The position numbers and the translations under genes were made by a program. The notes beneath the pieces were generated by a model, which worked only from the letters and a program-made list of their open reading frames with translations, searched no databases and was not told where the DNA came from. Of a stretch of 20,401 nt of DNA, positions 2,713 to 20,401 are shown piece by piece (within the stretch, counting starts at the first letter, position 1; each line of letters begins with the position of its first letter). Source of the stretch: a virus (Duplodnaviria; Heunggongvirae; Uroviricota; Caudoviricetes); IMG/VR virus record IMGVR_UViG_2513237219_000003; one strand, 5' to 3'.

Positions 2713-2732
2713 AAAAAACCGCCATCAGGCGG
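2713..2732 (-). terminator. Intrinsic-terminator-like hairpin between orf55 and xis (minus-strand sense)
   Basis: GC-rich 5-bp stem CCGCC/GGCGG with 4-nt loop, followed on the minus strand by a six-U tract; the loop contains the orf55 stop codon. Confidence 0.45.
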
Positions 2733-2892: not shown

Positions 2893-2902
2893 TTATCATC
2901 TC

Positions 2903-2930
2903 CATAAAACAAAACTCGCCGTAGCGAGTT
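2903..2930 (-). terminator. Intrinsic-terminator-like hairpin downstream of the 142-aa gene and IS1-A (minus-strand sense)
   Basis: 7-bp stem AACTCGC/GCGAGTT with 4-nt loop, followed on the minus strand by a U-rich tract (TTTGTTTTAT). Confidence 0.45.
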
Positions 2931-3031
2931 CAGATATAATTTCCACCAAAGGCAGTAGTTGCTGATGCTAAGAATTGGTGATGCTGCCAACTTACTGATT
3001 TAGTGTATGATGGTGTTTTTGAGGTGCTCCA

Positions 3032-3307
3032 GTGGCTTCTGTTTCTATCAGCTGTCCCTCCTGTTCAGCTACTGACGGGGTGGTGCGTAACGGCAAAAGC
3101 ACTGCCGGACATCAGCGCTATCTCTGCTCTCACTGCCGTAAAACATGGCAACTGCAGTTCACTTACACCGCTTCTCAACCCGGTACGCACCAGAAAATCA
3201 TTGATATGGCCATGAATGGCGTTGGATGCCGGGCAACCGCCCGCATTATGGGCGTTGGCCTCAACACGATTTTCCGCCATTTAAAAAACTCAGGCCGCAG
3301 TCGGTAA
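3032..3307 (+). CDS. insA: IS1 InsA (copy A), 91 aa
   Basis: Translation matches IS1 InsA; the A6C slippery motif TTAAAAAAC for the InsAB' -1 frameshift lies at about 3281..3289. Confidence 0.9.
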
Positions 3308-3729
3308 CCTCGCGCATACAGCCGGGCAGTGACGTCATCGTCTGCGCGGAAATGGACGAACAGTGGGGATACGTCGGGGCTAAATCGCGCCAGCGCTGGC
3401 TGTTTTACGCGTATGACAGGCTCCGGAAGACGGTTGTTGCGCACGTATTCGGTGAACGCACTATGGCGACGCTGGGGCGTCTTATGAGCCTGCTGTCACC
3501 CTTTGACGTGGTGATATGGATGACGGATGGCTGGCCGCTGTATGAATCCCGCCTGAAGGGAAAGCTGCACGTAATCAGCAAGCGATATACGCAGCGAATT
3601 GAGCGGCATAACCTGAATCTGAGGCAGCACCTGGCACGGCTGGGACGGAAGTCGCTGTCGTTCTCAAAATCGGTGGAGCTGCATGACAAAGTCATCGGGC
3701 ATTATCTGAACATAAAACACTATCAATAA
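3226..3729 (+). CDS. insB: IS1 InsB frame (copy A); expressed as an InsAB' fusion by -1 frameshifting
   Basis: Translation matches the IS1 InsB frame; overlaps insA in the -1 frame. Confidence 0.9.
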
Positions 3730-3751
3730 GTTGGGAGTCATTACCTAAGAA

Positions 3752-4180
3752 TTATTCAATATCTATTCCTGTAATATCTTTTATCTTTTTCCTTGCAAAG
3801 CCTTTTGCTAGTGATTTTGAAACACTTATTAGTGTACTAATTCCCTCATCCTTAAAGTTTGTTTTTATAGTTTGCCAGACCTCCTTTTGACGCAAGTCAG
3901 CAATAAAATCATGCCCTCTTGCTGTCAACCTCAGTGGTACTTCGATCCAACTATATCCAACACCTTCCCCTAACTCGTTGGACATTATATGACCGAACCC
4001 AGGTTTTCCATCAACCCTGACTATTAATTCGTAGTCGCATAATAATCGCATATGGAAAATAAAATTTTGGTCATATCTATTAAAGCCATTATCCTCTAGT
4101 TCACTAAGCATCGTGTCAGGGCCATGAGTTTTTTCGAATGCGATAAGTAGATCTTTTAGATATTGCTGGTCTAATTTCAT
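3752..4180 (-). CDS. Hypothetical 142-aa protein with a winged-helix-like N-terminus (DUF2513-like by motif recall); accessory gene in the ea8.5/ea22 position
   Basis: Intact ORF with GGAGG Shine-Dalgarno 6 nt upstream; motif LTARGHDFIADLRQKEVWQTIK resembles the conserved GH-F...R...VW core recalled for DUF2513 proteins; AT-rich codon usage; no lambda counterpart recognised. Confidence 0.6.
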   Translation of the reverse strand: MKLDQQYLKDLLIAFEKTHGPDTMLSELEDNGFNRYDQNFIFHMRLLCDYELIVRVDGKPGFGHIMSNELGEGVGYSWIEVPLRLTARGHDFIADLRQKEVWQTIKTNFKDEGISTLISVSKSLAKGFARKKIKDITGIDIE

Positions 4181-4208
4181 TGCCGCCTCCGTGACATGTC
4201 ACAGAGAT

Positions 4209-4547
4209 TTATATCATTAATTTTGTTTCGTGCCAGCCTTTGGTCACCCAGCATTGTGAGTCACCATTACACGGGCATGAATTAACAGGAACTCTCTCGC
4301 CGCACTTACCGCAACGTTTTCTGCTGATCGATTTTATACGCCAGCGCACACGTGCATCATCCTGGCGGCTCAGTAACGCGATGTACTCACCAAACTCGTA
4401 AGGCGCATGCCTGAAGCGGCGCGTGGCTCAGTTACGATCCAGCATTTCAATTTCCTGAGCATCAAGTACAAGCTCCAGCTTACGCATACCGGATGATGCT
4501 TGCTTGGCTCTCTGATCGACTTTGCGCTCTGCTGATGATTTAGCCAT
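4209..4547 (-). pseudogene. 112-codon zinc-finger-like ORF interrupted by a single in-frame TGA at codon 40 (4428..4430); possibly Ea8.5-like
   Basis: Manual translation MAKSSAERKVDQRAKQASSGMRKLELVLDAQEIEMLDRN-stop-ATRRFRHAPYEFGEYIALLSRQDDARVRWRIKSISRKRCGKCGERVPVNSCPCNGDSQCWVTKGWHETKLMI; CxxC...CxC motif; ends 28 nt upstream of the 142-aa gene start. Confidence 0.4.
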
Positions 4548-4743
4548 TCTGCTTTTCCTGCATTAGGAGAAAGACAATCATGGCGGCGCGGATACTTCCG
4601 GTATCTTTTTACTCGATATTACCCTTCAATGGCACATACAAGAAGAGAGCCATCAACAGGAGTGAGTGAGGAATCGACAACCAGCAACGCTTAATTATCT
4701 ATAGTGTCGTATTTGCTTCATAAAATATGGCGAATAACACAAA

Positions 4744-4775
4744 GCCCGCAGCAGCTCATTGTGCGGGCTTTTCTT
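4744..4775. terminator. Terminator-like hairpin (GCCCGCA / TGCGGGC stem) with flanking T and A tracts; strand ambiguous
   Basis: Perfect 7-bp GC-rich stem with 11-nt loop followed by TTTTCTT on the plus strand and preceded by AAA; lies between the truncated gene at 4841..5298 and the zinc-finger-like ORF. Confidence 0.45.
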
Positions 4776-4840
4776 ATACATACTTCCTAGAGATAATTCT
4801 ATGGAGGCATTAAATTAATACTGTCATTGGTAATATCATA

Positions 4841-5298
4841 TTATCTAAAAGTCTTTCCACTTTTAACGTCTAGGTATATTCTGTTCGACAACGTCATTCC
4901 TCCGCAATATGTGAAATAGATGTTTTTCCCCTTATTGCTTGATGCCATCCACCCTCCGATTTCCTTAAAGTCGCTTTCCGTGCAGACCCCTTCGTTTATT
5001 AACTTCCTAGCTGCCGAAGAAAACTCTTTTTTGTATATACGGTAGTCATCAGATCCTTTGATTAAAGTATCATCTCCGCTCGCATTTTCAGCAGGATCTG
5101 ATGGCCTTTCACTGCTAAGATCACTAAGTTTAACCCATTCTGAAAACTTGCCATTGACGATTCCGTTTTTTCTTGTGCAGGATTTATTACCTTCTTTAAT
5201 ATATTCGCTTTCCCCTCCCACACATGAGGCTGAATATGGCTCAGTTATACGAACCCATTCACCTTTTTTTTCTAGAAAATCTACGCCTTCCCTGAAAA
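4841..5298 (-). pseudogene. C-terminal fragment of an unknown protein; N-terminus removed at the IS1-B boundary
   Basis: Reading frame stays open from 5221 up to the IS1-B end at 5298 (…FREGVDFLEKKGEWVRITEPYSASCVGGESEY…) with no start codon before the IS; lysine-rich and AT-rich; no recognised family. Confidence 0.5.
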
Positions 5299-5313
5299 GG
5301 TAATGACTCTAAC

Positions 5314-5817
5314 TTATTGATAGTGTTTTATGTTCAGATAATGCCCGATGACTTTGTCATGCAGCTCCACCGATTTTGAGAACGACAGCGACTTCCGTCC
5401 CAGCCGTGCCAGGTGCTGCCTCAGATTCAGGTTATGCCGCTCAATTCGCTGCGTATATCGCTTGCTGATTACGTGCAGCTTTCCCTTCAGGCGGGATTCA
5501 TACAGCGGCCAGCCATCCGTCATCCATATCACCACGTCAAAGGGTGACAGCAGGCTCATAAGACGCCCCAGCGTCGCCATAGTGCGTTCACCGAATACGT
5601 GCGCAACAACCGTCTTCCGGAGCCTGTCATACGCGTAAAACAGCCAGCGCTGGCGCGATTTAGCCCCGACATAGCCCCACTGTTCGTCCATTTCCGCGCA
5701 GACGATGACGTCACTGCCCGGCTGTATGCGCGAGGTTACCGACTGCGGCCTGAGTTTTTTAAGTGACGTAAAATCGTGTTGAGGCCAACGCCCATAATGC
5801 GGGCTGTTGCCCGGCAT
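5314..5817 (-). CDS. insB: IS1 InsB frame (copy B)
   Basis: Translation matches IS1 InsB. Confidence 0.9.
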
Positions 5818-6011
5818 CCAACGCCATTCATGGCCATATCAATGATTTTCTGGTGCGTACCGGGTTGAGAAGCGGTGTAAGTGAACTGCAGTTGCCATGT
5901 TTTACGGCAGTGAGAGCAGAGATAGCGCTGATGTCCGGCGGTGCTTTTGCCGTTACGCACCACCCCGTCAGTAGCTGAACAGGAGGGACAGCTGATAGAA
6001 ACAGAAGCCAC
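5736..6011 (-). CDS. insA: IS1 InsA (copy B)
   Basis: Translation matches IS1 InsA. Confidence 0.9.
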
Positions 6012-6066
6012 TGGAGCACCTCAAAAACACCATCATACACTAAATCAGTAAGTTGGCAGCATCACC

Positions 6067-6283
6067 CCATCAGCGTTACCGTTTCGCGGTGCTTCTTCAG
6101 TACGCTACGGCAAATGTCATCGACGTTTTTATCCGGAAACTGCTGTCTGGCTTTTTTGATTTCAGAATTAGCCTGACGGGCAATGCTGCGAAGGGCGTTT
6201 TCCTGCTGAGGTGTCACTGAACAAGCCCCATGTCGGCAAGCATAAGCACACAGAATATGAAGCCCGCTGCCAGAAAAATGCAT
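6067..6283 (-). pseudogene. Lambda orf61-region ORF, 3'-truncated by IS1 copy B
   Basis: Frame ...VTPQQENALRSIARQANSEIKKARQQFPDKNVDDICRSVLKKHRETVTLMG runs straight into the IS1 end, with its stop supplied by IS1 sequence; lies in the orf61 position upstream of orf63. True start uncertain. Confidence 0.4.
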
Positions 6284-6293
6284 TCAGTGGTTG

Positions 6294-6485
6294 TCATACC
6301 TGGTCTCTCTCATCTGCTTCTGCTTTCGCCACCATCATTTCCAGTTTTTGTGAAAGGGATGTGGCTAACGTATGAAATTCTTCGTCTGTTTCTACTGGTA
6401 TTGGCACAAACCTGATTCCAATTTGAGCAAGGCTATGTGCCATCTCGATACTCGTTCTTAACTCAACAGGAGATGCTTTGTGCAT
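6294..6485 (-). CDS. Lambda orf63-like protein, 63 aa
   Basis: Translation and length match lambda orf63 as recalled; 28-nt overlap with orf60a as in lambda. Confidence 0.75.
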   Translation of the reverse strand: MHKASPVELRTSIEMAHSLAQIGIRFVPIPVETDEEFHTLATSLSQKLEMMVAKAEADERDQV

Positions 6486-6640
6486 ACAGCCCCTCGTTTA
6501 TTATTTATCTCCTCAGCCAGCCGCTGTGCTTTCAGTGGATTTCGGATAACAGAAAGGCCGGGAAATACCCAGCCTCGCTTTGTAACGGAGTAGACGAAAG
6601 TGATTGCGCCTACCCGGATATTATCGTGAGGATGCGTCAT
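6458..6640 (-). CDS. Lambda orf60a-like protein, 60 aa
   Basis: Translation [60 protein letters not shown] matches lambda orf60a; start overlaps the exo stop (ATGA). Confidence 0.75.
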
Positions 6641-7317
6641 CGCCATTGCTCCCCAAATACAAAACCAATTTCAGCCAGTGCCTCGTCCATTTTTTCGATG
6701 AACACCGGCACCATCTCGTCAAAACTCGCCATGTACTTTTCATCCCGCTCAACCACGACATAATGCAGTCCTTCACGCTTCATACGCGGGTCATAGTTGG
6801 CAAAGTACCAGGCATCTTTTCGTGTCACCCACATGCTGTACTGCACCTGGGCCATGTAAGCCGACTTTATGGCCTCGAAACCACCGAGCCGGAACTTCAT
6901 GAAATCCCGGGAGGTAAACGGGCATTTCAGCTCAAGGCCATTGCCGTCACTGCATAAACCATCGGGAGAGCAGGCGGTGCGCATACTTTCGTCGCGATAG
7001 ATGATCGGGGATTCAGTAACATTCACGCCGGAAGTGAATTCAAACAGGGTTCTGGCGTCGTTCTCGTACTGTTTTCCCCATGCCAGCGCCTTAGCATTAA
7101 CTTCCGGAGCCACACCGGTGCAAACCTCAGCCAGCAGGGTGTGGAAGTAGGACATTTTCATGTCAGGCCACTTCTTTCCTGAGCGGGGCTTGGCTATCAC
7201 GTTGTGAACTTCTGAAGCGGTGATGACGCCGAGCCGTAATTTGTGCCATGCATCATCCCCCTGTTCGACAGCTCTCACGTCGATCCCGGTACGCTGCAGG
7301 ATAATGTCCGGTGTCAT
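6637..7317 (-). CDS. exo: Lambda exonuclease (Red-alpha), 226 aa
   Basis: Full-length translation matches lambda Exo; start overlaps the bet 3' end as in lambda. Confidence 0.95.
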
Positions 7318-7760
7318 GCTGCCACCTTCTGCTCAGTGGCTTTCTGTTTCAGGAATCCAAGAGCTTTCACTGCTTCGGCCTGTGTCAGTTCTGACGATGC
7401 GCGAATGTCGCGGCGAAATATCTGGGAACAGAGCGGCAATAAGTCGTCATCCCATGTTTTGTCCAGGGCAATCAGCAGAGTGTTAATCTCCTGCATGGTT
7501 TCATCGTTAACCGGAGTAATGTCGCGTTCCGGCTGACGTTCTGCGGTGTATGCGGTATTTTCGACAATGCGCTCGGCTTCATCCTTGTCATAGATACCAG
7601 CAAATCCGAAGGCCAGACGGGCACACTGAATCATGGCTTTATGCCGTAACATCCGTTTGGGATGCGACTGCCACGGCCCCGTAATTTCTCTGCCTTCGCG
7701 GGTTTTGAATGGTTCGCGGCGGCATTCATCCATCCACTCGGTAACGCAGATCGGATGATT
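7314..7760 (-). pseudogene. bet: bet (Red-beta) 3' fragment; 5' part deleted, junction at about 7760/7761
   Basis: Translation matches the C-terminal part of lambda Bet (…NHPICVTEWMDECRREPFKTREGREI… to the end); upstream frame hits a stop and unrelated sequence beyond 7760. Confidence 0.9.
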
Positions 7761-7795
7761 ACCGGTTCGCTACCAGGGAAGAACGGGAAGGAAAG

Positions 7796-7882
7796 GTGAG
7801 CACGAATCTGATTTTCAAGGAGTGTCGCCAGAGTGCCGCGATGAAGCGGGTGTTGGCATTTTATCGCGGCAATTTTCAATAG
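7796..7882 (+). CDS. Hypothetical 28-aa ORF just past the bet deletion junction
   Basis: GTG start preceded by GGAAGGAAAG; translation VSTNLIFKECRQSAAMKRVLAFYRGNFQ; may correspond to a small DLP12-type ORF upstream of ybcN, but that could not be confirmed. Confidence 0.2.
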   Translation: MSTNLIFKECRQSAAMKRVLAFYRGNFQ

Positions 7883-7919
7883 ACTATGTACATAAAAATA
7901 TCATTTTTTTAATACATGT

Positions 7920-8111
7920 CTAATTATTGGACGAAATTGGTTTTTGCTTTGGTTTAGTTAGCCTAGCAATCAAGCCAGAGGCAATAATGATGATCCAAGC
8001 AATTTGATGCAATGCTACTCCAATATAAGAACCTTTATAGATAATAAAGGCATAGATCGCTAGAAACGAAATAAATATCCATAACGAAAGTTGATAAATT
8101 TTGGCGCGCAT
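7920..8111 (-). CDS. Hypothetical small membrane protein (about 63 aa, two predicted transmembrane helices, basic C-terminal tail)
   Basis: ORF with internal ATG start (MRAKIYQLSLWIFISFLAIYAFIIYKGSYIGVALHQIAWIIIIASGLIARLTKPKQKPISSNN); the longer track ORF begins at a TTG; very AT-rich; weak Shine-Dalgarno. Confidence 0.3.
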   Translation of the reverse strand: MRAKIYQLSLWIFISFLAIYAFIIYKGSYIGVALHQIAWIIIIASGLIARLTKPKQKPISSNN

Positions 8112-8367
8112 ATTTAATCCAATCAATCAGAAAGACGAGTAATCATAGAGGTACTATCACCCGGGTAACTATTGCTATTATGAACGGATAGGATAGAGGC
8201 TTCAATAACATATGCATCAAGTATGATGGAATATGTAGGTGAAAATGACTTGTGTCAAATTTGTGGAAATGAGTACCATGTTTCTCTGAAATTGATGTCG
8301 TTAATGGCTAGTGATAGTGAACTTTTTTACTTTATAATTCCTTTGGTTATAACAATAAGGTAAATTT

Positions 8368-8928
8368 ATGAAGAAGATAATATTATTAGCCATGATTATT
8401 GGTTCTTTAACAGGTTGCGCTAGTGTGCCACCATTGAATTTTTCAACACCTAACGTGGGAGTTAGCCAGAAAAAAATAGATGCTGAAATTAAGTCATTAA
8501 CGGTATCACTTGCTCGTCCAGATGAGCAGAAAGGGGATATCACTGCTGGTATGGAGGCTATAACTCCAATTTGGCGTGAATCTTTGCAGGAAGCACTCGA
8601 CCGAATGACTATTTTTCGTGATAGTTCACCAAATACGGTTAGCTTAAATGTTAAAGTGTTGGCTCTTGACGTTCCTGCTTTTGGTGTTTCAATGACAACT
8701 AAAGCAATTGCAAGGTATGAAATAATCAACCGTGCGAATGGTGATATTATATATACGCAGGATATTGAGTCTACCGGTACTGTTCCAGCCAGTTACGCAT
8801 TCTACGGTATTGTTCGAGCACGCGAATCTGTTAATCGCGCGGTGCAAAACAACATAACGCAGTTCTTGCAAGCATTAGAAAGTGTTGATCTTTCTCGTCC
8901 AATGTTTCCTGTTAGGGTAGCTAAATGA
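8368..8928 (+). CDS. Hypothetical outer-membrane lipoprotein, 186 aa (first gene of a two-lipoprotein operon)
   Basis: ATG with AAGG Shine-Dalgarno 7 nt upstream; signal peptide MKKIILLAMIIGSLTGC with lipobox LTGC and Ala at +2; AT-rich; stop overlaps the start of the next gene (ATGA). Confidence 0.75.
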   Translation: MKKIILLAMIIGSLTGCASVPPLNFSTPNVGVSQKKIDAEIKSLTVSLARPDEQKGDITAGMEAITPIWRESLQEALDRMTIFRDSSPNTVSLNVKVLALDVPAFGVSMTTKAIARYEIINRANGDIIYTQDIESTGTVPASYAFYGIVRARESVNRAVQNNITQFLQALESVDLSRPMFPVRVAK

Positions 8929-9377
8929 AGCGATTATTCGTAATTGCTCCACTCTTAGTGTTGGTTGGATGCGCACAAAATATATCGCCAAATAGTTATT
9001 CTGTTGGCTCTGTGGGCATGGTTAATCGAACTATCGCTGGTACAGTTATTAGTGCTAGGGGGGTTGATATCAGTGGGACTTCCGCGTTAGGCGGGACTGC
9101 TGGGGCTGCCGTGGGGGCAACCGCTGGTTCTGCGCTTGGTGGGGGAGTTCGTTCTAATATCGTTGGTGCCGTTGGTGGTGCAGTCATTGGTGGTATTGCC
9201 GGGGCAGCAATCGAATCTTCAGCAACAAAACAAACAGGCATGGAATATGTTGTCGAAACTGAGAATGGGAATTTAATGACCATTGTTCAAGGCAAAGATC
9301 CGTTATTTACTCAAGGAAGTAAGGTCCTTGTTTTATACGGAAACCCTTCTCGCATAATAACAGACCCGCGTCACTAA
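8925..9377 (+). CDS. SlyB/Pcp-like glycine-zipper outer-membrane lipoprotein, 150 aa
   Basis: Lipobox LVGC; central Gly/Ala zipper (GTSALGGTAGAAVGATAGSALGGGVRSNIVGAVGGAVIGGIAGAAI) and C-terminal region laid out like E. coli SlyB as recalled; translationally coupled to the upstream lipoprotein gene. Confidence 0.8.
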   Translation: MKRLFVIAPLLVLVGCAQNISPNSYSVGSVGMVNRTIAGTVISARGVDISGTSALGGTAGAAVGATAGSALGGGVRSNIVGAVGGAVIGGIAGAAIESSATKQTGMEYVVETENGNLMTIVQGKDPLFTQGSKVLVLYGNPSRIITDPRH

Positions 9378-9567
9378 CATACCTTTTGATTTTGTAAAAT
9401 CAATTCGTAATAATAAAGTCATCGGAGCTTGAACAACTCCGGTGACTTCTGCGCTAAACGGGGACGTTTATGCGCACATACAATCCAAACTCTCTTCTCC
9501 CTTCACAGATGCAGAAATGCACCTGCGATTTTTTGCATCCAGCGTCTGACCTCTGCGGAGGTGAAGC

Positions 9568-10023
9568 GTGAACCTACCACAAGATGGCATCAAACTGCAT
9601 CGCGGTAACTTCACCGCTATCGGCCAGCAGATCCAGCCTTATCTGGAGGACGGAAAATGCTTTCGCATGGTGCTTAAACCGTGGCGTGAGAAACGCAGTC
9701 TTTCCCAGAATGCACTCAGCCACATGTGGTACAGCGAAATCAGTGAATACCTCATCAGCAGGGGGAAATCGTTCGCTACCGCAGCATGGGTAAAAGATGC
9801 TCTCAAACACACATACCTCGGTTATGAAACCAAGGACCTGGTTGATGTCGTAACCGGCGAAATCACTACTATCCAGTCGTTACGCCATACCTCCGATCTT
9901 GATACCGGAGAGATGTATATCTTCCTGTGTAAGGTTGAAGCCTGGGCGGTGAATATTGGCTGCCACCTGACTATTCCGCAGAGCTGCGAGTTCCAGCAGC
10001 TCCGCGACAAACAGGAGGCGTAA
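9568..10023 (+). CDS. ybcN: YbcN-family DLP12-type prophage protein, 151 aa
   Basis: Translation matches K-12 DLP12 YbcN as recalled; GTG start with GGAGGTGA Shine-Dalgarno. Confidence 0.9.
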
Positions 10024-10193
10024 TGGCTACACCGCTTATTCGTGTCATGAACGGACACATCTACAGAGTACCAAATCGTCGTAAGCGTAAACCGGAGCTG
10101 AAGCCTTCCGAAATACCAACACTGCTCGGATATACCGCCAGCCTGGTTGATAAAAAATGGTTGCGACTGGCAGCAAGGAGGAGTCATGGCTGA
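10023..10193 (+). CDS. ninE: NinE-family protein, 56 aa
   Basis: ATG overlapping the ybcN stop (TAATG); translation [56 protein letters not shown]; not in the ORF track (under 60 aa). Confidence 0.8.
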   Translation: MATPLIRVMNGHIYRVPNRRKRKPELKPSEIPTLLGYTASLVDKKWLRLAARRSHG

Positions 10194-10476
10194 TTTGAGA
10201 AAAGCAGCGCGTGGTCGGGAATGCCAGGTAAGAATCCCTGGCGTATGTAATGGCAACCCTGAAACGTCTGTACTGGCACATATCCGGCTGACTGGATTGT
10301 GCGGCACCGGTACGAAACCGCCAGACCTGATTGCCACCATTGCATGTTCTGCCTGCCACGACGAAATCGACCGCCGCACACATTTTGTCGATGCTGCATA
10401 TGCAAAAGAATGCGCGCTGGAAGGTATGGCGAGAACACAGGTTATCTGGCTGAAAGAGGGGGTTATTAAGGCGTGA
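10186..10476 (+). CDS. ybcO: YbcO (DUF1364) putative nuclease, 96 aa
   Basis: ATG at 10186 with AGGAGG Shine-Dalgarno; translation from [26 protein letters not shown]… matches DLP12 YbcO; Cys-rich motif; the longer track ORF starts upstream inside ninE. Confidence 0.85.
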
Positions 10477-10835
10477 ATACCTACAGCATCACATTACCCT
10501 GGCCTCCGAGCAATAATCGCTATTACCGCCATAATCGCGGGCGCACACACATCAGCGCAGAAGGGCAGGCATACCGCGATAACGTCACCCGAATCATTAA
10601 AAACGCAATGCTGGATATCGGCCTGGCTATGCCAGTGAAAATCCGTATTGAGTGCCACATGCCGGATCGCCGTCGCCGTGACCTGGATAATCTGCAAAAA
10701 GCCGCTTTTGACGCACTCACCAAAGCAGGTTTCTGGCTGGATGATGCTCAGGTCGTTGATTACCGCGTTGTGAAGATGCCTGTTACCAAAGGTGGGAGGC
10801 TGGAACTGACCATCACCGAAATGGGGAATGAATGA
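10473..10835 (+). CDS. rusA: RusA Holliday-junction resolvase, 120 aa
   Basis: Translation matches DLP12 RusA nearly residue for residue; GTG start overlapping the ybcO stop. Confidence 0.95.
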
Positions 10836-10972
10836 TGTTTGAGTTTAATATGGCAGAACTTCTTCGCCACCGCTGGATGCGCCTGCGCTTATATCGTTTC
10901 CCCAGTTCTGTTTTGACCGATTACCGAATACTGAGGAATTACGCCAAAACCCTGACAGGAGCAGGAGTATGA
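10832..10972 (+). CDS. ylcG: YlcG-like small protein, 46 aa
   Basis: ATG overlapping the rusA stop; translation [46 protein letters not shown]; position downstream of rusA as in DLP12. Confidence 0.7.
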
Positions 10973-11057
10973 AGTCAGAGATAACAATCAACTAATACTG
11001 TTTTATTGATTTTTGCTTGTAATTGGCGTTCTGGTCTGATTTTTGTGGAGTAAGTTG

Positions 11058-11441
11058 ATGCGTGATATTCAGATGGTTCTTGAGCGTTGGGGAGCGTGGG
11101 CGGCTAATAATCATGAAGATGTGACCTGGTCGTCCATTGCCGCCGGTTTTAAGGGATTAATTACTTCAAAAGTAAAATCTCGCCCGCAATGTTGTGACGA
11201 TGACGCGATGATCATTTGCGGGTGCATGGCCCGTCTGAAAAAGAACAACAGCGATTTGCACGATTTATTAGTAGATTATTATGTAGTCGGTATGACATTC
11301 ATGTCACTGGCAGGTAAGCATTGCTGCTCTGATGGTTATATCGGGAAAAGGTTACAGAAGGCTGAGGGTATAATTGAAGGGATGTTAATGGCATTAGATA
11401 TCCGGTTAGAGATGGATATCGTTGTTAATAACTCTAATTAA
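11058..11441 (+). CDS. quuD: Q-family late-gene antiterminator (phage-21 / DLP12 type), 127 aa
   Basis: Translation [24 protein letters not shown]… matches DLP12 QuuD as recalled; ATG with GTGGAG Shine-Dalgarno; Cys-rich zinc-binding region. Confidence 0.9.
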
Positions 11442-11468
11442 TATGCCAATTGTTTACTAAAAATTATT

Positions 11469-11492
11469 AAAAATGGGGCGTTGAGACGCCCC
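11469..11492 (-). terminator. Intrinsic terminator for the nmpC transcript (minus-strand sense)
   Basis: 6-bp GC stem GGGGCG/CGCCCC with 6-nt loop, followed on the minus strand by ATTTTT. Confidence 0.6.
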
Positions 11493-11629
11493 CAAAAATA
11501 AAGGGTAATATATAACAGAAGGTTTATATAGTTAGAAGCAAGGTTGTGCTCCTAAAGGAAGTGGCTTGAGGGAGCCACTTATATGTTGGGGAGGCAAAGC
11601 CTCCCGCAACATATCTTTTAGTAATCAAA
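11469..11629 (-). ncRNA. ipeX: Structured 3' region of the nmpC transcript; candidate IpeX-like small RNA
   Basis: About 160 nt between the nmpC stop and the terminator, holding two further perfect hairpins (GGGAGGC/GCCTCCC and AAGTGGCT/AGCCACTT). Assignment rests on recall that the IpeX sRNA lies just 3' of nmpC in DLP12. Confidence 0.4.
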
Positions 11630-12712
11630 TTAGAACTGGTAAACCATACCTACAGCAACGATATCATCGGTAGCAACGCCAGATGCTTTCGTGAAATCGC
11701 TCTTATCAATCAGGTTGATTTTGTAATCAACAAAAGTGGACATATTTTTGTTGAAGTAATAGGTTGCACCTACATCAATATATTCAACCAGGTCCTGATC
11801 ACCCCACGCACCCAAGTCTTTTCCTTTAGATTGCAGGTAAGCAACGGACGGACGCAGACCGAAGTCGAACTGATATTGTGCAACTACTTCGAAGTTTTGT
11901 GCTTTGTTGGCAATATGGTTATTACCAAAAACAGTCATGTTCTGGGTTTCAGAATAGGTGGTAGCCAGATAGATGTTGTTCGCATCATATTTCAGACCAG
12001 CTGCCCATACTTCAGCATTTTGACCAGATGCATTCAGGCTGTTGTTACCGTAGATAACCTGATTATTAGTGCGGTCAGATTTAGCATAGGTTGCACCTAC
12101 ACCGAATCCTTCATACTCATAAGTAGTGGAGAAACCGAAACCATCACCATTAGCTTCAGTTACGTCAGTGCGGTCATTTTTACCCTGATACTGAGCAGCA
12201 AAGTTCAGACCATCAACCAGACCAAAGAAGTCATTGTTACGATAAGTTGCAACACCTGTGGTGCGACCAGTCATGAATACATCTGTTTGGGTCCAGGTAT
12301 CGCCACCGAATTCTGGCAGAACGTCGGTCCATGCACCAATATCGTATGCTACACCGTAGTTACGGCCATAATCGATGGAGCCGTAGTCACCGAATTTCAG
12401 GCCAGCGAAGGCAAGACGGGTTTTATCTTTGGAGGAACCTTGAGATTCAGCGCGGTTGCCTTTGAATTCATATTCCCACTGACCGAAACCAGTCAGTTGA
12501 TCGTTGATTTGGGTTTCACCTTTGAAGCCAAGACGGGCATAAGTAGTATCACCATCATCTGCATCATTAGAGGAGAAGTAGTGCTTAGCATTAACTTTCC
12601 CGTACAGATCCAGCTTGTTACTGTCTTTATTATAAATTTCAGCTGCCTGAGCAGACATCGCCATCAGTACTGATGCAGCTACAGCAGAAATTGCCACTGT
12701 TAATTTTTTCAT
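11630..12712 (-). CDS. nmpC: NmpC/OmpD-family general porin, apparently intact (360 aa with signal peptide)
   Basis: Translation matches the NmpC/OmpC porin family with signal peptide [23 protein letters not shown] and C-terminal …VAVGMVYQF; the track ORF starts 20 codons upstream, but the MKKL start fits the signal peptide. Confidence 0.9.
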
Positions 12713-13139
12713 CGTGAGCCCTTTTTTTGAACTATTATTAAAAAATGATGTCACTGCGCGATAAATATTCATCTAATCAATGTGATTATTTCAAGATGTA
12801 AGTTTTGGTTTCTCATTTGATTTGTGAAGTAGATCTCTATTTTTATCTGAACTTTTTCTATCGAATCCTATTCATGGCTCTTGGCTGAATAAAAATAAAT
12901 CTATTAGCCAATTTATATTAATGGCTGTTATTTATAAGTGCTCTATAATTTGAAGATTCAATTTAAACCAGCTAAAAATAACGCTGGAAATTATTTGTTG
13001 GTTATTTGTTGAGATTTGCTTATGTATTTGTAGTGGTGTTTTCAATACTCGGTAGCATTCTCGCAAATATCATTTAGTGGTTTACGTACGTAAAAAATTG
13101 GTTATGCTGTTAAGAGTGGTTACTTCGTCACACAGCTTA

Positions 13140-13170
13140 AACCCGCCGTCGAGCGGGTTTTTCCATTTTT
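13140..13170 (+). terminator. Intrinsic terminator upstream of the lysis genes; candidate tR'-like site
   Basis: 7-bp stem AACCCGC/GCGGGTT with 6-nt loop followed by a T-rich tract (TTTTCCATTTTTT), about 130 nt upstream of essD. Confidence 0.55.
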
Positions 13171-13299
13171 TGAGTCTCGATATTAGCTGATAACCCAATA
13201 CCTGAGTTATTCACTGACTCCGAGTCTGTTACGTTTCTGCTTTTTTGCGATACGTTGTATTCCCTCAATTTACACCCGCTTTGTCTGCGAGGTGGGGTT

Positions 13300-13515
13300 A
13301 TGAAATCCATGGATAAGTTAACAACGGGTGTCGCCTATGGCACCTCAGCAGGTAGTGCCGGTTACTGGTTTTTACAGCTGCTCGATAAAGTCACGCCCTC
13401 ACAGTGGGCAGCAATAGGTGTGCTGGGTAGCCTGGTATTTGGCCTGCTGACGTACCTGACAAACCTTTATTTCAAGATTAAAGAAGATAAGCGCAAGGCT
13501 GCGAGAGGTGAATAA
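13300..13515 (+). CDS. essD: S21-type class II holin (pinholin) with dual-start motif, 71 aa
   Basis: Translation [71 protein letters not shown] matches phage-21 S / DLP12 EssD; Met1 and Met4 fit antiholin/holin dual starts; strong Shine-Dalgarno. Confidence 0.9.
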
Positions 13516-14012
13516 TGCCTCCATCATTACGAAAAGCCGTTGCTGCTGCTATTGGTGGCGGAGCAATTGCTATAGCATCAGTGTTAATTACTGGCCCAAG
13601 TGGTAACGATGGTCTGGAAGGTGTCAGCTACGTACCATACAAAGATATCGTTGGCGTATGGACTGTATGTCACGGACACACCGGAAAAGACATCATGCTC
13701 GGTAAAACGTATACCAAAGCAGAATGCAAAGCACTCTTGAATAAAGACCTTGCCACTGTCGCCAGACAAATTAACCCGTACATCAAAGTCGATATACCGG
13801 AAACAACGCGCGGCGCTCTTTACTCATTCGTTTACAACGTGGGTGCTGGCAATTTCAGAACATCGACGCTTCTTCGCAAAATAAACCAGGGCGATATCAA
13901 AGGCGCATGTGATCAGCTACGTCGCTGGACATATGCTGGCGGTAAGCAATGGAAAGGTCTCATGACTCGTCGTGAGATTGAGCGTGAAATCTGTTTGTGG
14001 GGTCAGCAATGA
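13515..14012 (+). CDS. rrrD: SAR endolysin (lysozyme, R21 type), 165 aa
   Basis: Translation matches DLP12 RrrD; N-terminal Gly/Ala-rich signal-arrest-release segment; start overlaps the essD stop (TAATG). Confidence 0.95.
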
Positions 14013-14470
14013 ACAGAGTAACCGCGATTATCTCCGCTCTGGTTATCTGCATCATCGTCTACCTGTCATGGGCTGTTAATCATTACCGTGATAACGCCAT
14101 TACCTACAAAGCCCAGCGCGACAAAAATGCCAGAGAACTGAAGCTGGCGAACGCGGCAATTACTGACATGCAGATGCGTCAGCGTGATGTTGCTGCGCTC
14201 GATGCAAAATACACGAAGGAGTTAGCTGATGCGAAAGCTGAAAATGATGCTCTGCGTGATGATGTTGCCGCTGGTCGTCGTCGGTTGCACATCAAAGCAG
14301 TCTGTCAGTCAGTGCGTGAAGCCACCACCGCCTCCGGCGTGGATAATGCAGCCTCCCCCCGACTGGCAGACACCGCTGAACGGGATTATTTCACCCTCAG
14401 AGAGAGGCTGATCACTATGCAAAAACAACTGGAAGGAACCCAGAAGTATATTAATGAGCAGTGCAGATAG
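14009..14470 (+). CDS. rzpD: Rz-type inner-membrane spanin, 153 aa
   Basis: Translation from [29 protein letters not shown]… matches DLP12 RzpD; N-terminal transmembrane helix; ATGA overlap with rrrD. Confidence 0.9.
14229..14411 (+). CDS. rzoD: Rz1-type outer-membrane lipoprotein spanin, nested in the +1 frame of rzpD, 60 aa
   Basis: Translation [24 protein letters not shown]…PPPPP… with lipobox VVGC and proline-rich region; wholly embedded in rzpD. Confidence 0.85.
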
Positions 14471-14501
14471 AGTTGCCCATATCGATGGGCAACTCATGCA
14501 A

Positions 14502-14795
14502 TTATTGTGAGCAATACACACGCGCTTCCAGCGGAGTATAAATGCCTAAAGTAATAAAACCGAGCAATCCATTTACGAATGTTTGCTGGGTTTCTGTTTT
14601 AACAACATTTTCTGCGCCGCCACAAATTTTGGCTGCATCGACAGTTTTCTTCTGCCCAATTCCAGAAACGAAGAAATGATGGGTGATGGTTTCCTTTGGT
14701 GCTACTGCTGCCGGTTTGTTTTGAACAGTAAACGTCTGTTGAGCACATCCTGTAATAAGCAGGGCCAGCGCAGTAGCGAGTAGCATTTTTTTCAT
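14502..14795 (-). CDS. borD: Bor-family lipoprotein (serum-resistance-associated), 97 aa
   Basis: Translation matches lambda Bor / DLP12 BorD; lipobox ITGC. Confidence 0.9.
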   Translation of the reverse strand: MKKMLLATALALLITGCAQQTFTVQNKPAAVAPKETITHHFFVSGIGQKKTVDAAKICGGAENVVKTETQQTFVNGLLGFITLGIYTPLEARVYCSQ

Positions 14796-15085
14796 GGTGT
14801 TATTCCCGATGCTTTTTGAAGTTCGCAGAATCGTATGTGTAGAAAATTAAACAAACCCTAAACAATGAGTTGAAATTTCATATTGTTAATATTTATTAAT
14901 GTATGTCAGGTGCGATGAATCGTCATTGTATTCCCGGATTAACTATGTCCACAGCCCTGACGGGGAACTTCTCTGCGGGAGTGTCCGGGAATAATTAAAA
15001 ACGATGCACACAGGGTTTAGCGCGTACACGTATTGCATTATGCCAACGCCCCGGTGCTGACACGGAAGAAACCGGACGTTATGAT

Positions 15086-15538
15086 TTAGCGTGGAAAGAT
15101 TTGTGTAGTGTTCTGAATGCTCTCAGTAAATAGTAATGAATTATCAAAGGTATAGTAATATCTTTTATGTTCATGGATATTTGTAACCCATCGGAAAACT
15201 CCTGCTTTAGCAAGATTTTCCCTGTATTGCTGAAATGTGATTTCTCTTGATTTCAACCTATCATAGGACGTTTCTATAAGATGCGTGTTTCTTGAGAATT
15301 TAACATTTACAACCTTTTTAAGTCCTTTTATTAACACGGTGTTATCGTTTTCTAACACGATGTGAATATTATCTGTGGCTAGATAGTAAATATAATGTGA
15401 GACGTTGTGACGTTTTAGTTCAGAATAAAACAATTCACAGTTTAAATCTTTTCGCACTTGATCGAATATTTCTTTAAAAATGGCAACCTGAGCCATTGGT
15501 AAAACCTTCCATGTGATACGAGGGCGCGTAGTTTGCAT
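15086..15538 (-). CDS. ybcV: YbcV-family (DUF1398) protein; start uncertain
   Basis: Translation …[38 protein letters not shown]… matches DLP12 YbcV as recalled; the track ORF runs to 15619; candidate starts at 15538 or 15496. Confidence 0.8.
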
Positions 15539-15781
15539 TATCGTTTTTATCGTTTCAATCTGGTCTGACCTCTTTGTGTTTTGTTGATGATTTATGTCAA
15601 ATATTAGGAATGTTTTCACTTAATAGTATTGGTTGCGTAACAAAGTGCGGTCCTGCTGGCATTCTGGAGGGAAATACAACCGACAGATGTATGTAAGGCC
15701 AACGTGCTCAAATCTTCATACAGAAAGATTTGAAGTAATATTTTAACCGCTAGATGAAGAGCAAGCGCATGGAGCGACAAA

Positions 15782-15988
15782 ATGAATAAAGAACAATCTG
15801 CTGATGATCCCTCCGTGGATCTGATTCGTGTAAAAAATATGCTTAATAGCACCATTTCTATGAGTTACCCTGATGTTGTAATTGCATGTATAGAACATAA
15901 GGTGTCTCTGGAAGCATTCAGAGCAATTGAGGCAGCGTTGGTGAAGCACGATAATAATATGAAGGATTATTCCCTGGTGGTTGACTGA
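15782..15988 (+). CDS. ybcW: YbcW-like small protein, 68 aa
   Basis: ORF of the expected length and position (divergent from ybcV); translation [68 protein letters not shown]. Confidence 0.7.
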
Positions 15989-16152
15989 TCACCATAACTG
16001 CTAATCATTCAAACTATTTAGCCTGTGACAGAGCCAACACGCAGTCTGTCACTGTCAGGAAAGTGGTAAAACTGCAACTCAATTACTGCAATGCCCTCGT
16101 AATTAAGTGAATTTACAATATCGTCCTGTTCGGAGGGAAGAACGCGGGATGT

Positions 16153-16347
16153 TCATTCTTCATCACTTTTAATTGATGTATATGCTCTCTTTTCTGACGT
16201 TAGTCTCCGACGGCAGGCTTCAATGACCCAGGCTGAGAAATTCCCGGACCCTTTTTGCTCAAGAGCGATGTTAATTTGTTCAATCATTTGGTTAGGAAAG
16301 CGGATGTTGCGGGTTGTTGTTCTGCGGGTTCTGTTCTTCGTTGACAT
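16153..16347 (-). CDS. ylcI: YlcI-like (DUF3950) small protein, 64 aa
   Basis: Translation MSTKNRTRRTTTRNIRFPNQMIEQINIALEQKGSGNFSAWVIEACRRRLTSEKRAYTSIKSDEE; basic N-terminus and ribbon-helix-helix-like core. Confidence 0.65.
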   Translation of the reverse strand: MSTKNRTRRTTTRNIRFPNQMIEQINIALEQKGSGNFSAWVIEACRRRLTSEKRAYTSIKSDEE

Positions 16348-16546
16348 GAGGTTGCCCCGTATTCAGTGTCGCTGATTTGTATTGTCTGAAGTTGTTTTTA
16401 CGTTAAGTTGATGCAGATCAATTAATACGATACCTGCGTCATAATTGATTATTTGACGTGGTTTGATGGCGTAGATGCACGTTGTGACATGTAGATGATA
16501 ATTATTATCATTTTGCGGGTCCTTTCCGGCGATCCGACAGGTTACG

Positions 16547-16558
16547 GGGCGGCGACCT
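16547..16558. other. Lambda cosN cohesive-end sequence (GGGCGGCGACCT), with cosB/Nu1-binding region following to about 16735
   Basis: Exact 12-nt lambda cohesive end preceded by the lambda right-end sequence …CCGACAGGTTACG and followed by lambda left-end sequence CGCGGGTTTTCGCTATTTATGAAAATTTTCCGG…. Confidence 0.85.
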
Positions 16559-16735
16559 CGCGGGTTTTCGCTATTTATGAAAATTTTCCGGTTTAAGGCG
16601 TTTCCGTTCTTCTTCGTCATAACTTAATGTTTTTATTTAAAATACCCTCTGAAAAGAAAGGAAGCGACAGGTGCTGAAAGCGAGCTTTTTGGCCTCTGTC
16701 GTTTCCTTTCTCTGTTTTTGTCCGTGGAATGAACA

Positions 16736-16795
16736 ATGGAAGTCAACAAAAAGCAGCTGGCTGACATTTTCGGTGCGAGTATAAGTTCTGATTAG
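16736..16795 (+). pseudogene. nu1: nu1 (terminase small subunit) remnant: first 16 codons only, then deletion junction at about 16782/16783
   Basis: MEVNKKQLADIFGASI matches the lambda Nu1 N-terminus; the frame then diverges and stops after 3 more codons; downstream sequence looks like the last codons of lom plus its terminator. Confidence 0.8.
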
Positions 16796-16818
16796 CCAGG
16801 TAACACAGTGTTATGACA

Positions 16819-16844
16819 GCCCGCCGGTTCAGGCGGGCTTTTTT
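16819..16844 (+). terminator. Intrinsic terminator (GCCCGCC / GGCGGGC stem plus T6) upstream of stf; probable lom terminator
   Basis: Perfect 7-bp GC-rich stem, 6-nt loop, TTTTTT run. Confidence 0.7.
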
Positions 16845-16855
16845 GTGGGGTGAAT

Positions 16856-19819
16856 ATGGCAGTAAAGATTTCAGGTGTACTGAAAGACAGCACAGGAAAA
16901 CCGGTACAGAACTGCACAATCCAGCTGAAAGCAAAACGTAACAGCACCGCGGTGGTGGTGAACACGCTGGCCTCAGAAAATCCGGATGAAGCCGGGCGTT
17001 ACAGCATGGACGTTGAGTACGGTCAGTACAGCGTTATTCTGTTGGTGGAAGGATTCCCGCCGTCACATGCCGGGACCATCACCGTGTATGAAGATTCCCG
17101 ACCCGGTACGCTGAATGATTTTCTCGGTGCCATGACGGAGGATGATGCCCGTCCGGAGGCTCTGCGCCGTTTTGAACTGATGGTGGAAGAGGTGGCGCGT
17201 AACGCGTCCGCAGTGGCACAGAACACGGCAGCCGCGAAGAAGTCAGCCAGTGATGCCAGCACATCTGCCAGTGAGGCGGCAACTCATACAACCGATGCTG
17301 CAGGCTCAGCTCGTGCCGCCAGCACGTCAGCCGGACAGGCTGCATCATCTGCTCAGTCAGCATCTTCCAGCGCAGGAACGGCATCAACAAAGGCCAGTGA
17401 AGCATCGAAAAGTGCTGCTGCTGCAGAGTCCTCAAAAAGCGCGGCAGCTACCAGTGCCGCTGCGGCGAAAACGTCAGAAACGAATGCGGCAGCGTCACAA
17501 CAATCAGCAGCCACTTCTGCATCCGCCGCGACCACGAAGGCGTCAGAAGCTGCCACCTCAGCCCGGGATGCGGCGGCCTCAAAAGAGGCGGCAAAATCAT
17601 CAGAAACGAGCGCAGCCTCGAGCGCCAGTAGTGCAGCCTCCTCGGCAACAGCGGCAGGAAATTCCGCGAAGGCGGCAAAAACGTCCGAGACGAACGCTAA
17701 GTCTTCTGAGACGGCAGCAGCACAGAGTGCCTCCGCAGCAGCAGACTCAAAAACAGCGGCTGCCTCATCTGCCAGCGCCGCGTCAACAAATGCCGGGCAG
17801 GCCTCAGCCAGTGCCACCGCTGCCGGAAAGTCGGCAGAAAGCGCCGCATCATCCGCTTCAACAGCCACAACGAAGGCTGGCGAAGCCACTGAACAGGCCA
17901 CGGCAGCAGCGAGGTCAGCTTCCGCAGCGAAGACATCCGAAACGAACGCGAAAGCGTCGGAAACCAGCGCAGAATCCTCAAAAACGGCTGCCGCATCGTC
18001 AGCCAGTTCGGCGGCGTCATCGGCATCATCGGCGTCTGCTTCAAAAGATGAGGCGACCAGACAGGCGTCAGCAGCGAAGGGCAGCGCCACGACGGCATCC
18101 ACGAAGGCGACAGAGGCAGCTGGCAGTGCGACGGCGGCAGCTCAGAGCAAAAGTACGGCGGAATCCGCGGCAACGCGCGCCGAGACAGCAGCAAAACGGG
18201 CAGAGGATATTGCATCCGCCGTGGCGCTTGAGGATGCGAGCACGACGAAAAAGGGGATAGTACAGCTCAGCAGTGCGACTAACAGCACTTCCGAGTCACT
18301 GGCGGCAACGCCAAAAGCCGTTAAGGCCGCGTATGAGCTGGCTAACGGGAAATACACCGCACAGGATGCAACGACAGCACAGAAAGGGATAGTTCAGCTT
18401 AGCAACGCGACCAACAGCACATCTGAAATGCTGGCGGCAACGCCAAAGTCGGTAAAGGCAGCCTATGACCTTGCTAACGGGAAATATACTGCTCAGGACG
18501 CTACGACAGCACAAAAAGGAATTGTCCAGCTCAGTAGTGCAACCAACAGCGCATCTGAAACGCTTGCCGCGACACCGAAAGCAGTGAAAGCAGCTAATGA
18601 TAATGCGAATGGTCGGGTACCTTCTGCCCGTAAGGTGAATGGTAAGGCGCTTTCAGCGGATATAACACTGACGCCGAAAGATATTGGTACGCTTAACTCA
18701 ACAACAATGTCATTCAGCGGTGGTGCTGGTTGGTTCAAATTAGCAACGGTAACCATGCCACAGGCGAGTTCTGTTGTTTCAATTACGTTGATTGGTGGCG
18801 CGGGATTTAACGTGGGGTCACCTCAACAGGCAGGTATATCTGAACTTGTTTTGCGTGCAGGTAATGGTAATCCGAAGGGGATTACTGGTGCTTTATGGCA
18901 GCGCACATCGACAGGGTTTACAAATTTTGCCTGGGTCAATACATCTGGTGATACTTACGATATTTACGTTGCAATCGGAAATTATGCGACTGGTGTAAAT
19001 ATTCAATGGGATTATACCAGTAATGCCAGCGTGACGATTCATACGTCACCAGCATATTCTGCTAATAAGCCGGAAGGGTTAACGGACGGTACAGTTTATT
19101 CACTCTATACGCCATCAGAGCAGTTTTATCCGCCTGGCGCACCAATCCCGTGGCCATCAGATACCGTTCCGTCTGGCTATGCCCTGATGCAGGGGCAGAC
19201 TTTTGACAAATCTGCATACCCGAAACTTGCAGCCGCTTATCCGTCAGCCGTGATCCCTGATATGCGTGGCTGGACGATTAAGGGCAAACCCGCCAGTGGT
19301 CGTGCCGTATTGTCTCAGGAACAGGACGGCATTAAATCGCACACCCACAGCGCCAGCGCATCCAGTACGGATTTGGGGACGAAAAACACATCGTCGTTTG
19401 ATTACGGAACCAAATCCACGAATAACACCGGGGCGCATACCCATAGTATTAGCGGGACTGCAAATAGTACCGGTGCGCACCAACACAAGAGTTCCGGTGC
19501 ATTTGGTGGCACGAACACGAGCATTTTCCCTAATGGTTATACCGCGATTTCAAATCTAAGCGCGGGGATTATGAGCACAACAAGCGGTAGTGGCCAGACT
19601 CGTAATGCAGGGAAGACATCATCAGATGGTGCTCATACCCACTCGCTGTCCGGCACTGCTGCAAGCGCAGGCGCACATGCACATACTGTCGGTATTGGTG
19701 CTCATACGCACTCCGTTGCGATTGGCTCACACGGACACACCATCACCGTTAACGCTGCTGGTAACGCGGAAAACACCGTCAAAAACATCGCATTTAACTA
19801 TATTGTGAGGCTTGCATAA
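16856..19819 (+). CDS. stf: Side tail fiber protein Stf, full-length single ORF (about 987 aa)
   Basis: N-terminus [26 protein letters not shown]… and C-terminus …[31 protein letters not shown] match lambda Stf; long Ala/Ser/Thr-rich shaft; His-rich HxH repeats near the tip; ATG at 16856 with GTGGGGTGA upstream. Confidence 0.95.
18242..18615 (+). repeat. Three tandem copies of a 129-132 bp unit inside stf, encoding 43-44 aa tail-fibre repeats
   Basis: Units begin at 18242, 18371 and 18503; encoded peptides TT(A)(Q)KGIVQLS(S/N)ATNS(T/A)SE(S/M/T)LAATPK(A/S)VKAAY(E/D)[11 protein letters not shown]; the third copy diverges at its end. Confidence 0.85.
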
Positions 19820-20401
19820 TGGCATTCAGAATGAGTGAACAACCACGGACCATAAAAATTTATAATCTGCTGGCCGGAACTAATGAATTTATTGGTGAAG
19901 GTGATGCATATATTCCGCCTCATACAGGTCTGCCAGCAAACAGTACCGATATTGCACCGCCAGATATTCCGGCTGGCTTCGTGGCTGTTTTCAACAGTGA
20001 TGAGTCATCGTGGCATCTTGTTGAAGACCATCGGGGTAAAACAGTTTATGACGTGGCATCAGGGGACGCGTTATTTATTTCTGAACTCGGCTCATTACCG
20101 GAAAATGTTACCTGGTTATCCCCGGAAGGGGAGTTTCAGAAGTGGAACGGCACAGCCTGGGTGAAGGATACGGAAGCAGAAAAACTGTTCCGGATCCGGG
20201 AGGTGGAAGAAACAAAAAACAAGCCTGATGCAGGTAGCCAGTGAGCATATAGCGCCGCTTCAGGATGCTGTGGATCTGGAAATCGCAACGGAGGAAGAAA
20301 CCTTGTTGCTGGAAGCCTGGAAAAAGTATCGGGTATTGCTGAACCGTGTTGATACGTCAACTGCACAGGATATTGAATGGCCAGTAGCACCTATAGGGTA
20401 A
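19819..20401 (+). pseudogene. tfa: Tail fiber assembly gene tfa with a frameshift at the A-run near 20214..20223
   Basis: Frame 1 (19819..20244) gives [24 protein letters not shown]… matching the lambda Tfa N-terminus, then stops; the next frame continues [59 protein letters not shown] to the stop at 20399..20401, matching the Tfa C-terminus. Start overlaps the stf stop (TAATG). Confidence 0.85.

Follow-up and report, generated by a model that had tools for sequence, protein, structure and literature searches.

Does a lambda-type cos site with no morphogenetic genes behind it mark a scar of prophage decay, or a packaging signal that a helper phage could still use? The question is raised by positions 16547–16855 of a 20,401-nucleotide stretch of viral DNA (the window; IMG/VR record IMGVR_UViG_2513237219_000003), which matches E. 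coli NCTC9040 at 100% and strain 1332KP at 99.9% identity. We read the feature as a deletion scar in a cryptic lambdoid prophage at att-lambda (ybhC / ybhB-bio), with a probability of about 0.85 that covers the whole of this explanation, a scar in a decayed lambdoid prophage. Such prophage decay is of a known kind, with parallels in DLP12 of E. coli K-12 and in Qin of the same host, which we take to be a similar cryptic prophage. The observation made in the first-pass annotation is confirmed, subject to small corrections at two points (a single base of the cosB subsite R2 and a frameshift in tfa), and its interpretation is supported in part.

On the left of the joint, window 16300–16782 corresponds without large gaps to lambda 48255–48502 followed by 1–237 across the circular junction, with lambda bp 1 at 16547, the start of the segment of interest. 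The nu1 stump ORF (16736–16795, plus strand) begins with the ATG at 16736 and consists of 47 nt of nu1 (16736–16782, lambda 191–237), 10 out-of-frame nucleotides and a TAG at 16793–16795, encoding MEVNKKQLADIFGASISSD before the stop. The match to lambda through codon 16, as first described, is correct: the 47 nt are identical and the frame then diverges, codon 16 being ATA in the window and ATC in lambda (Ile in both), after which the frame reads SSD and stops. With 19 codons, the stump would be too short to form the Nu1 winged helix-turn-helix DNA-binding domain.

On the right, the window from 16780 onward aligns to lambda from 19574. The breakpoint alignment proposed in the first-pass annotation as a check fixes the breakpoints at a 3-bp microhomology, the TAT at 16780–16782 (plus strand), which is common to nu1 (lambda 235–237) and lom (lambda 19574–19576); the left and right alignments share this overlap against lambda, TUM1887 and PEC1009. 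The TAT and the following AAG TTC TGA (16783–16791, plus strand), the last two lom codons and the stop, make up the final 12 nt of lom, which are the same in PEC1009 and differ from TAT AAA TTC TGA in lambda by one synonymous change. An intrinsic terminator lies 3′ of lom (16818–16845, plus strand), with an 8-bp stem (7 GC pairs), a 6-nt loop and a T-run; the hairpin at 16818–16839, with the T-run after it, is a homologue of the lambda hairpin in which stem and loop are altered. The stf ATG follows at 16856. These last codons, the terminator and the stf start bear out the suggestion that the sequence after 16782 is lom-derived, and the anatomy of cos, nu1 stump, lom tail and stf was described correctly, with no head or tail-shaft gene remaining. 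The junction joins nu1 nt 47 to lom nt 589 of 600, and the missing block in lambda coordinates is 238–19576, about 19.3 kb. The lambda matches on the left and right span hundreds of bases, far beyond chance. Illegitimate recombination across the 3-bp TAT would account for the joint, and its outcome would be the absence of all head and tail genes that fill this interval between cos and stf in lambda.

Over 3.6 kb, the lom-to-stf stretch and that of PEC1009, whose lom keeps 438 nt, are 99.9% identical. The side tail fibre gene stf (16856–19819, plus strand) is intact, with 987 codons plus the stop as in PEC1009. The claim that cos, stf and tfa were all spared holds for cos and stf, with a reservation for the tail-fibre assembly gene tfa (19819–20401, plus strand), which is frameshifted in the window by an extra A at 20221 (ACAAGCC, versus ACAGCC in all relatives). 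Its product is 141 aa long in the window, whereas RefSeq NCTC9040 and all sister strains encode 193 aa; the extra A may be a private mutation or else an error made in sequencing the source assembly. Two 1-bp indels and a 1,097-bp deletion next to an IS1 copy set the window apart from RefSeq NCTC9040, so that the source assembly is either not error-free or a variant, and these differences would allow the junction to be an assembly or sequencing artefact as well. However, the exact junction is found in 2 of 5426 complete E. coli genomes (NCTC9040 and 1332KP) at 100% identity over 501 bp, in independent assemblies from different sources, and it lies within unique, non-repetitive sequence. An artefact is scarcely conceivable on this evidence.

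The integration of the prophage is evident from its att site, its terminal integrase and both att cores. The attL common core, GCTTTTTTATACTAA, is an exact match at 1331–1345 (plus strand), between ybhC and int. The attR core lies outside the window, at 25247–25261 of the NCTC9040 locus (L001), with one mismatch and followed by the attB B′ arm, and the distance from attL to attR in RefSeq NCTC9040 is 23,411 bp. A full-length lambda-type module of int (1419–2489) and xis (2467–2685) occupies 1419–2685 (minus strand), in which Int and Xis are identical to lambda at 351/356 and 71/72 residues. The prophage combines this lambda-type int/xis/exo arm with a DLP12-like late region in the order ybcN, ninE, ybcO, rusA, ylcG, quuD, a porin gene (nmpC-type), essD, rrrD, rzpD, bor, ybcV, ybcW, ylcI and cos. 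In addition to the nu1-to-J block of head and tail genes, the essential genes for repressor, N, O and P are gone. The RefSeq annotation gives a recT'-'ren fusion, also present in the sister strains, and the immunity and replication region had therefore already been lost. This loss points to a long-dead prophage, with the nu1–lom joint as one of its scars. TUM1887, a less decayed relative at the same site, carries a cI-like gene, O, P, nu1, A, W, B, J and lom.

Other features were observed in the window. A truncated recT/bet is fused head-to-head to a truncated ren at about 7314–7882, with the junction near 7760; this scar alone removes gam, the repressor gene, cro, O and P, and it occurs in all near-identical sisters and not in TUM1887. 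An intact nmpC-type porin gene (annotated ompC; 11630–12712, minus strand) lies between quuD and the lysis cassette, and its homologue in K-12 DLP12 is interrupted by IS5. Two IS1 copies in inverted orientation (2976–3745 and 5298–6066) are absent from PEC1009. The first has a 9-bp target duplication and an extra G inside it at 3733. The second adjoins the missing 1,097 bp, which are still present in RefSeq NCTC9040 (L001 5803–6899), and this loss looks like an IS1-adjacent deletion.

The cos region to the left of the scar contains everything by which a lambda-type cos is recognized: cosN, cosQ at lambda spacing and a complex cosB in the arrangement R3-I1-R2-R1, with subsites as defined previously (PMC4669245, PMC4856287, PMC9026076). 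The packaging-termination subsite cosQ (PMC4669245), GGGTCCT, lies at 16517–16523 (plus strand) and equals lambda 48473–48479. At cosN (16547–16558, no strand assigned), the 12-nt cohesive end GGGCGGCGACCT is exactly lambda bp 1–12 and its flanking bases are identical; the sequence ACGGGGCGGCGACCTCG occurs once in the 36.5-kb NCTC9040 locus. R3, the critical binding site for TerS (Nu1) with a defined extent (PMC9026076), is unchanged at 16596–16611 (plus strand, lambda bp 50–65). The R3–R2 interval at 16612–16654 (no strand assigned) equals lambda bp 66–108 and includes the putative IHF site I1 (PMC4669245, PMC4856287). The inverted R2 follows at 16655–16670 (minus strand, lambda bp 109–124), and R1, CTGTCGTTTCCTTTCT, at 16696–16711 (plus strand) equals lambda 151–166. 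The window shows no differences from lambda over bp 1–117, and two differences from NC_001416 beyond that point, A118G and one G fewer at 138/139.

Only the first of these is a genuine change in cosB relative to lambda. A118G falls at window 16664 within R2, which reads AGAAAGGAAGCGACAG in the window versus AGAAAGGAAACGACAG in lambda and matches at 15 of its 16 positions. In the R orientation, the change converts CGTTTCC into CGCTTCC and falls on the counterpart of R3 bp 55. TerS contacts R3 bp 55–63, which places A118G at the edge of the equivalent R2 segment, and mutations in R2 or R1 are milder than those in R3 (PMC9026076). PEC1009 and NCTC9104 share A118G, and it is absent from TUM1887, PhiR11_1, K-12 DLP12 and all 49 phage records that carry the segment. 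Because of its place at the edge of the TerS-contact segment and its absence from sequenced phages, A118G may lower initiation efficiency, and it looks like drift in a dead prophage. The statement that cos and its cosB were preserved exactly is accurate for cosQ, the cohesive end, R3, the IHF-site region and R1, but fails at this one real base in R2.

The missing G was rejected as a feature of the window. NC_001416 has GCGAGGCTTTTT at bp 138/139, whereas resequenced lambda, DE3 and all natural relatives have GCGAGCTTTTT and align ungapped there, so the difference is a peculiarity of NC_001416. The extra G between R2 and R1 in this 1982 lambda reference is probably an error or a strain-specific base. 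To the left of cosN, nine substitutions at −17 to −76 separate the window from lambda; none is unique, as all occur in viable wild lambdoid phages, and all nine are common to the plaque-forming phage PhiR11_1, from which the window differs across 383 bp of the cos region only by A118G. With resequenced lambda as the reference, lambda bp 1–190 contain a single substitution. The lambda cos (cosQ-cosN-cosB) and that of the window thus have the same subsites in the same order and spacing, whereas the latter carries A118G in R2 and is followed by no cognate nu1 or A. Judged from its sequence, the window cos appears to retain every initiation subsite for a terminase of lambda specificity, and it is probably still cleavable by a lambda-type terminase.

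At this one chromosomal site, the prophage lineage shows at least six different junctions to the right of cos. NCTC9040, 1332KP and the window share nu1 nt 47 to lom nt 589 with the 3-bp TAT. In PEC1009 and EC416, the joint lies between nu1 nt 510 and lom nt 162 and has a 6-bp overlap, while NCTC9104 and ten others (11 genomes) retain full nu1 and join A nt 1049 to the 3′ part of stf. Further junctions run from nu1 nt 361 to stf (23CRST021 group, SCPM), from A nt 245 to tfa (VG48B2) and from A nt 245 to a point upstream of the AraC-family gene (E423). Similar junctions were found in K-12 DLP12 (A nt 308 to tfaD) and in the more divergent prophage of AR_0369 (nu1 nt 211 to lom nt 69). The arms of the strains with near-identical prophages differ by 0–2 SNPs per 10 kb, and chromosomal flanks and arms of the sister strains are 99.96–100% identical, while TUM1887 reaches 98–99% identity over the prophage and 99.36% over the flank. 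This co-divergence of prophage and flanks indicates vertical inheritance with rapid and repeated deletion in the remnant region.

Whether one deletion or several produced the window allele is a separate question. The first-pass annotation had held that one deletion removed everything from nu1 through lom. The joint is indeed simple and single, but a single event is not established by it, as there is a further route of 884 bp from PEC1009: the window lacks exactly 884 bp of the PEC1009 sequence (19326–20209 of L006), bounded by the same TAT at both edges, so that a second round of trimming in a PEC1009-like state could have produced it. Descent from the alleles that join A to stf is excluded, since those lack lom and the 5′ part of stf. 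The PEC1009 and NCTC9104 alleles cannot derive from each other in either direction, which requires at least two primary events and several later ones. We consider it most likely, at odds slightly better than even, that the junction is the last of several nested deletions. The remnant to the right of cos would have been deleted again and again in a near-clonal lineage, with the joint of nu1 nt 510 to lom nt 162 in a sister strain as a plausible intermediate. Progressive nested trimming is favoured because all alleles have both endpoints near the edges of the dispensable block.

A single deletion of 10–20 kb from a fuller ancestor is possible. Under this alternative, which we hold to be the less probable but a serious contender, one clean cut of about 10–19 kb removed a complete morphogenetic block from nu1 codon 16 to the last lom codons, as a simple joint with 3-bp microhomology and no filler would allow. 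The left arm of the window is identical to that of NCTC9104, which keeps A nt 1–1049, and differs from that of PEC1009 by 2 SNPs, so there is no positive evidence for passage via the PEC1009 state. However, both SNPs are private to PEC1009 and carry no grouping information, an exact candidate intermediate exists, and six near-edge junctions in near-clonal strains fit trimming better than six near-total losses. SNP polarity, scored for the window against PEC1009 and NCTC9104 with TUM1887 and K-12 as outgroups, gave no resolution of the deletion order, every variable site being private to one strain. A further explanation, that cleavage at cos caused the deletions, was rejected. Such a break should erode cos itself together with the unprotected left side (reasoned from PMC3945230), whereas cosN is intact and the sequence was lost from the right side, which terminase protects.

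The closest known system is DLP12 in K-12, which shares the late gene order from ybcN to ylcI followed by cos, the loss of head and tail genes by deletion from just right of cos into the tail-fibre genes, and an AraC-family gene to the right (appY in K-12). The cos regions of DLP12 and the window are about 97% identical, and the DLP12 cos lies in a block of homology with lambda that is a recombination hotspot (PMC3945230); PMC6379469 makes no mention of cos. DLP12 is organised as cos, nohD, aaaD' and tfaD, and it differs in being located at argU, with another integrase, a full-length nohD and 308 nt of A, whereas the window element is at att-lambda with lambda Int/Xis, only 47 nt of nu1 and an intact stf. 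Similarly, cos-type PICIs (EcCICFT073) and cosmids have a lambda-like cosQ/cosN and no packaging genes of their own and need a helper terminase (PMC6739421, PMC9026076). Unlike the window remnant, however, PICIs are small dedicated elements with their own replication module, in which lambda cosB is lacking and Rpp redirects TerS; the remnant has an ordinary lambda cosB, no rpp, no replicon and no sign of horizontal spread.

A third comparison is offered by the docL particles of lambda and in situ packaging from the cos of an unexcised prophage, reportedly described by Little and Gottesman in 1971 and by Sternberg in 1986. The geometry is the same, with a chromosomal cos, rightward direction toward bio and no terminating cos downstream. 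Those prophages were excision-defective but otherwise complete lambda, whereas the window remnant would need the terminase of another phage.

Could the cos keep the remnant mobilisable as a helper-dependent proto-satellite? In such a scheme, a lambda-type helper would supply Int/Xis, terminase and capsids, and the circle of about 22–23 kb would be packaged as a dimer (about 45–47 kb), or bio-uvrB would be transferred. Packaging in trans by a helper had been raised in the first-pass annotation, and it is tenable in a weak sense, as the initiation subsites are present, but there is no replicon and no second cos, and R2 is altered. The intact cosQ, cosN, R3, I1 region and R1 are compatible with packaging, as are int/xis at 99% identity to lambda, both att cores and an intact overlap region. 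The excised circle would be 22–23 kb, which is too small for packaging as a monomer; that a dimer would fit the lambda head is speculative. Dimerised, the 23.4 kb between attL and attR would fall within the packaging limits of lambda, said to be about 38–51 kb after Feiss et al. in 1977. Moreover, cos is kept in all the junction alleles observed. The idea that defective prophages act as proto-hitchers has been published (PMC11389934). On the other side, no replication module is available to form concatemers, which the element could not produce without a replicon. The RefSeq annotation of the whole element lists no primase/replicase, ori or alpA; rpp is also absent, and a standard lambda cosB, the nu1 stump and stf follow cosN where a PICI would have rpp beside a cos without helper cosB.

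The search for a second cos in the packaging direction (17-mer, up to 3 mismatches) found none within about 55 kb downstream, a stretch of core genes only, from bio via uvrB, moa, dinG, fiu, gln and dps to ompX. Cos-to-cos packaging in situ was thus rejected, and one-ended, unterminated packaging toward bio/uvrB is to be expected. Horizontal mobility was rejected as well, because the flanks are as similar as the prophage: in the limited strain sample, the flank values of the sister strains (99.96–100%) stand against 99.36% in the more distant relative, which gives no indication of helper-mediated transfer and is what vertical descent predicts. The lack of a replication module and of a second cos, together with the co-diverging flanks, argues against a working mobilisable element, and so does the R2 substitution, with its look of drift. 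Taken together, a mobilisable role for the remnant is improbable.

It might also be asked whether the retention of cos through at least six independent trimmings reflects selection, for a helper-dependent element or for a recombination landing pad. This is equally improbable, and the left endpoints do not argue for cos protection. With a length of about 390 bp, the cos-containing spacer takes up about 20% of the left-hand dispensable stretch, and by a rough calculation six alleles would all miss it with a chance of 0.8^6, about 0.26. A six-fold miss at this level is not statistically notable and provides no evidence for selection on cos. If cos were selected, the terminase of an infecting lambda-type phage would cut it, and the cut would favour either transfer of the stf-tfa-bio side or an exchange of the bor, lysis, nmpC and stf cassettes with the incoming phage.

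On the reading that we prefer, a deletion scar in a decayed prophage, the scar itself has no function, and its 19-codon stump would be unable to make a DNA-binding protein. When a lambda-like phage grows in the cell, the chromosomal cos is expected to be cut and recombination beside it stimulated; packaging, if any, would be one-ended and abortive, running rightward into stf, tfa, bio and uvrB. Stimulation of local recombination with infecting lambda by the cos of a defective prophage has been shown for DLP12 (PMC3945230), and on this precedent it is the best-documented consequence that such a cos would be expected to have. As one more decay allele, the scar matters little alone. Its modest value lies in the allelic series, with at least six junctions beside one cos in strains 0–2 SNPs per 10 kb apart. 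The series is a natural example of quick, microhomology-mediated trimming of pseudogene remnants while other prophage genes stay intact, and its members could serve as natural cos-only constructs to test if resident or infecting lambdoid phages cut or package a chromosomal cos.

Some endpoints in the series recur. In E423 (L013) and VG48B2 (L014), A is broken after the identical base (...GTGTTGGTTA, A nt 245), some 950 bp to the right of cos (in the parent sequence, L008, at about 23849), and joined to different right partners, the tfa ATG in VG48B2 and sequence upstream of the AraC-family gene in E423, each with 2-bp TA microhomology. It is unlikely that such a nucleotide-exact common endpoint arose from independent events. 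The A nt 1049|stf joint of NCTC9104 (L007 junction) and an internal 270-bp stf deletion in 23CRST021 (L011 second junction) have right endpoints within 1–3 nt, at …TA(C)|CTTCTGCCCGTAAGG; the stf endpoints concerned are window 18344 and 18615, the latter also being the start of a widely shared stf 3′ module. Because A (GATACGGGAAAAC) and stf near 18340 (GCTAACGGGAAAT) have 8 bp in common, the NCTC9104 allele may have formed in two steps. More fusions of nu1 or A to J, and of A to lom, were observed in other E. coli lambdoid prophages (TUM9812, E92/E94, 52F4, LR-58-1 etc.), which suggests that prophages of various lineages commonly decay by deletions that begin just right of cos and end close to J, lom or stf.
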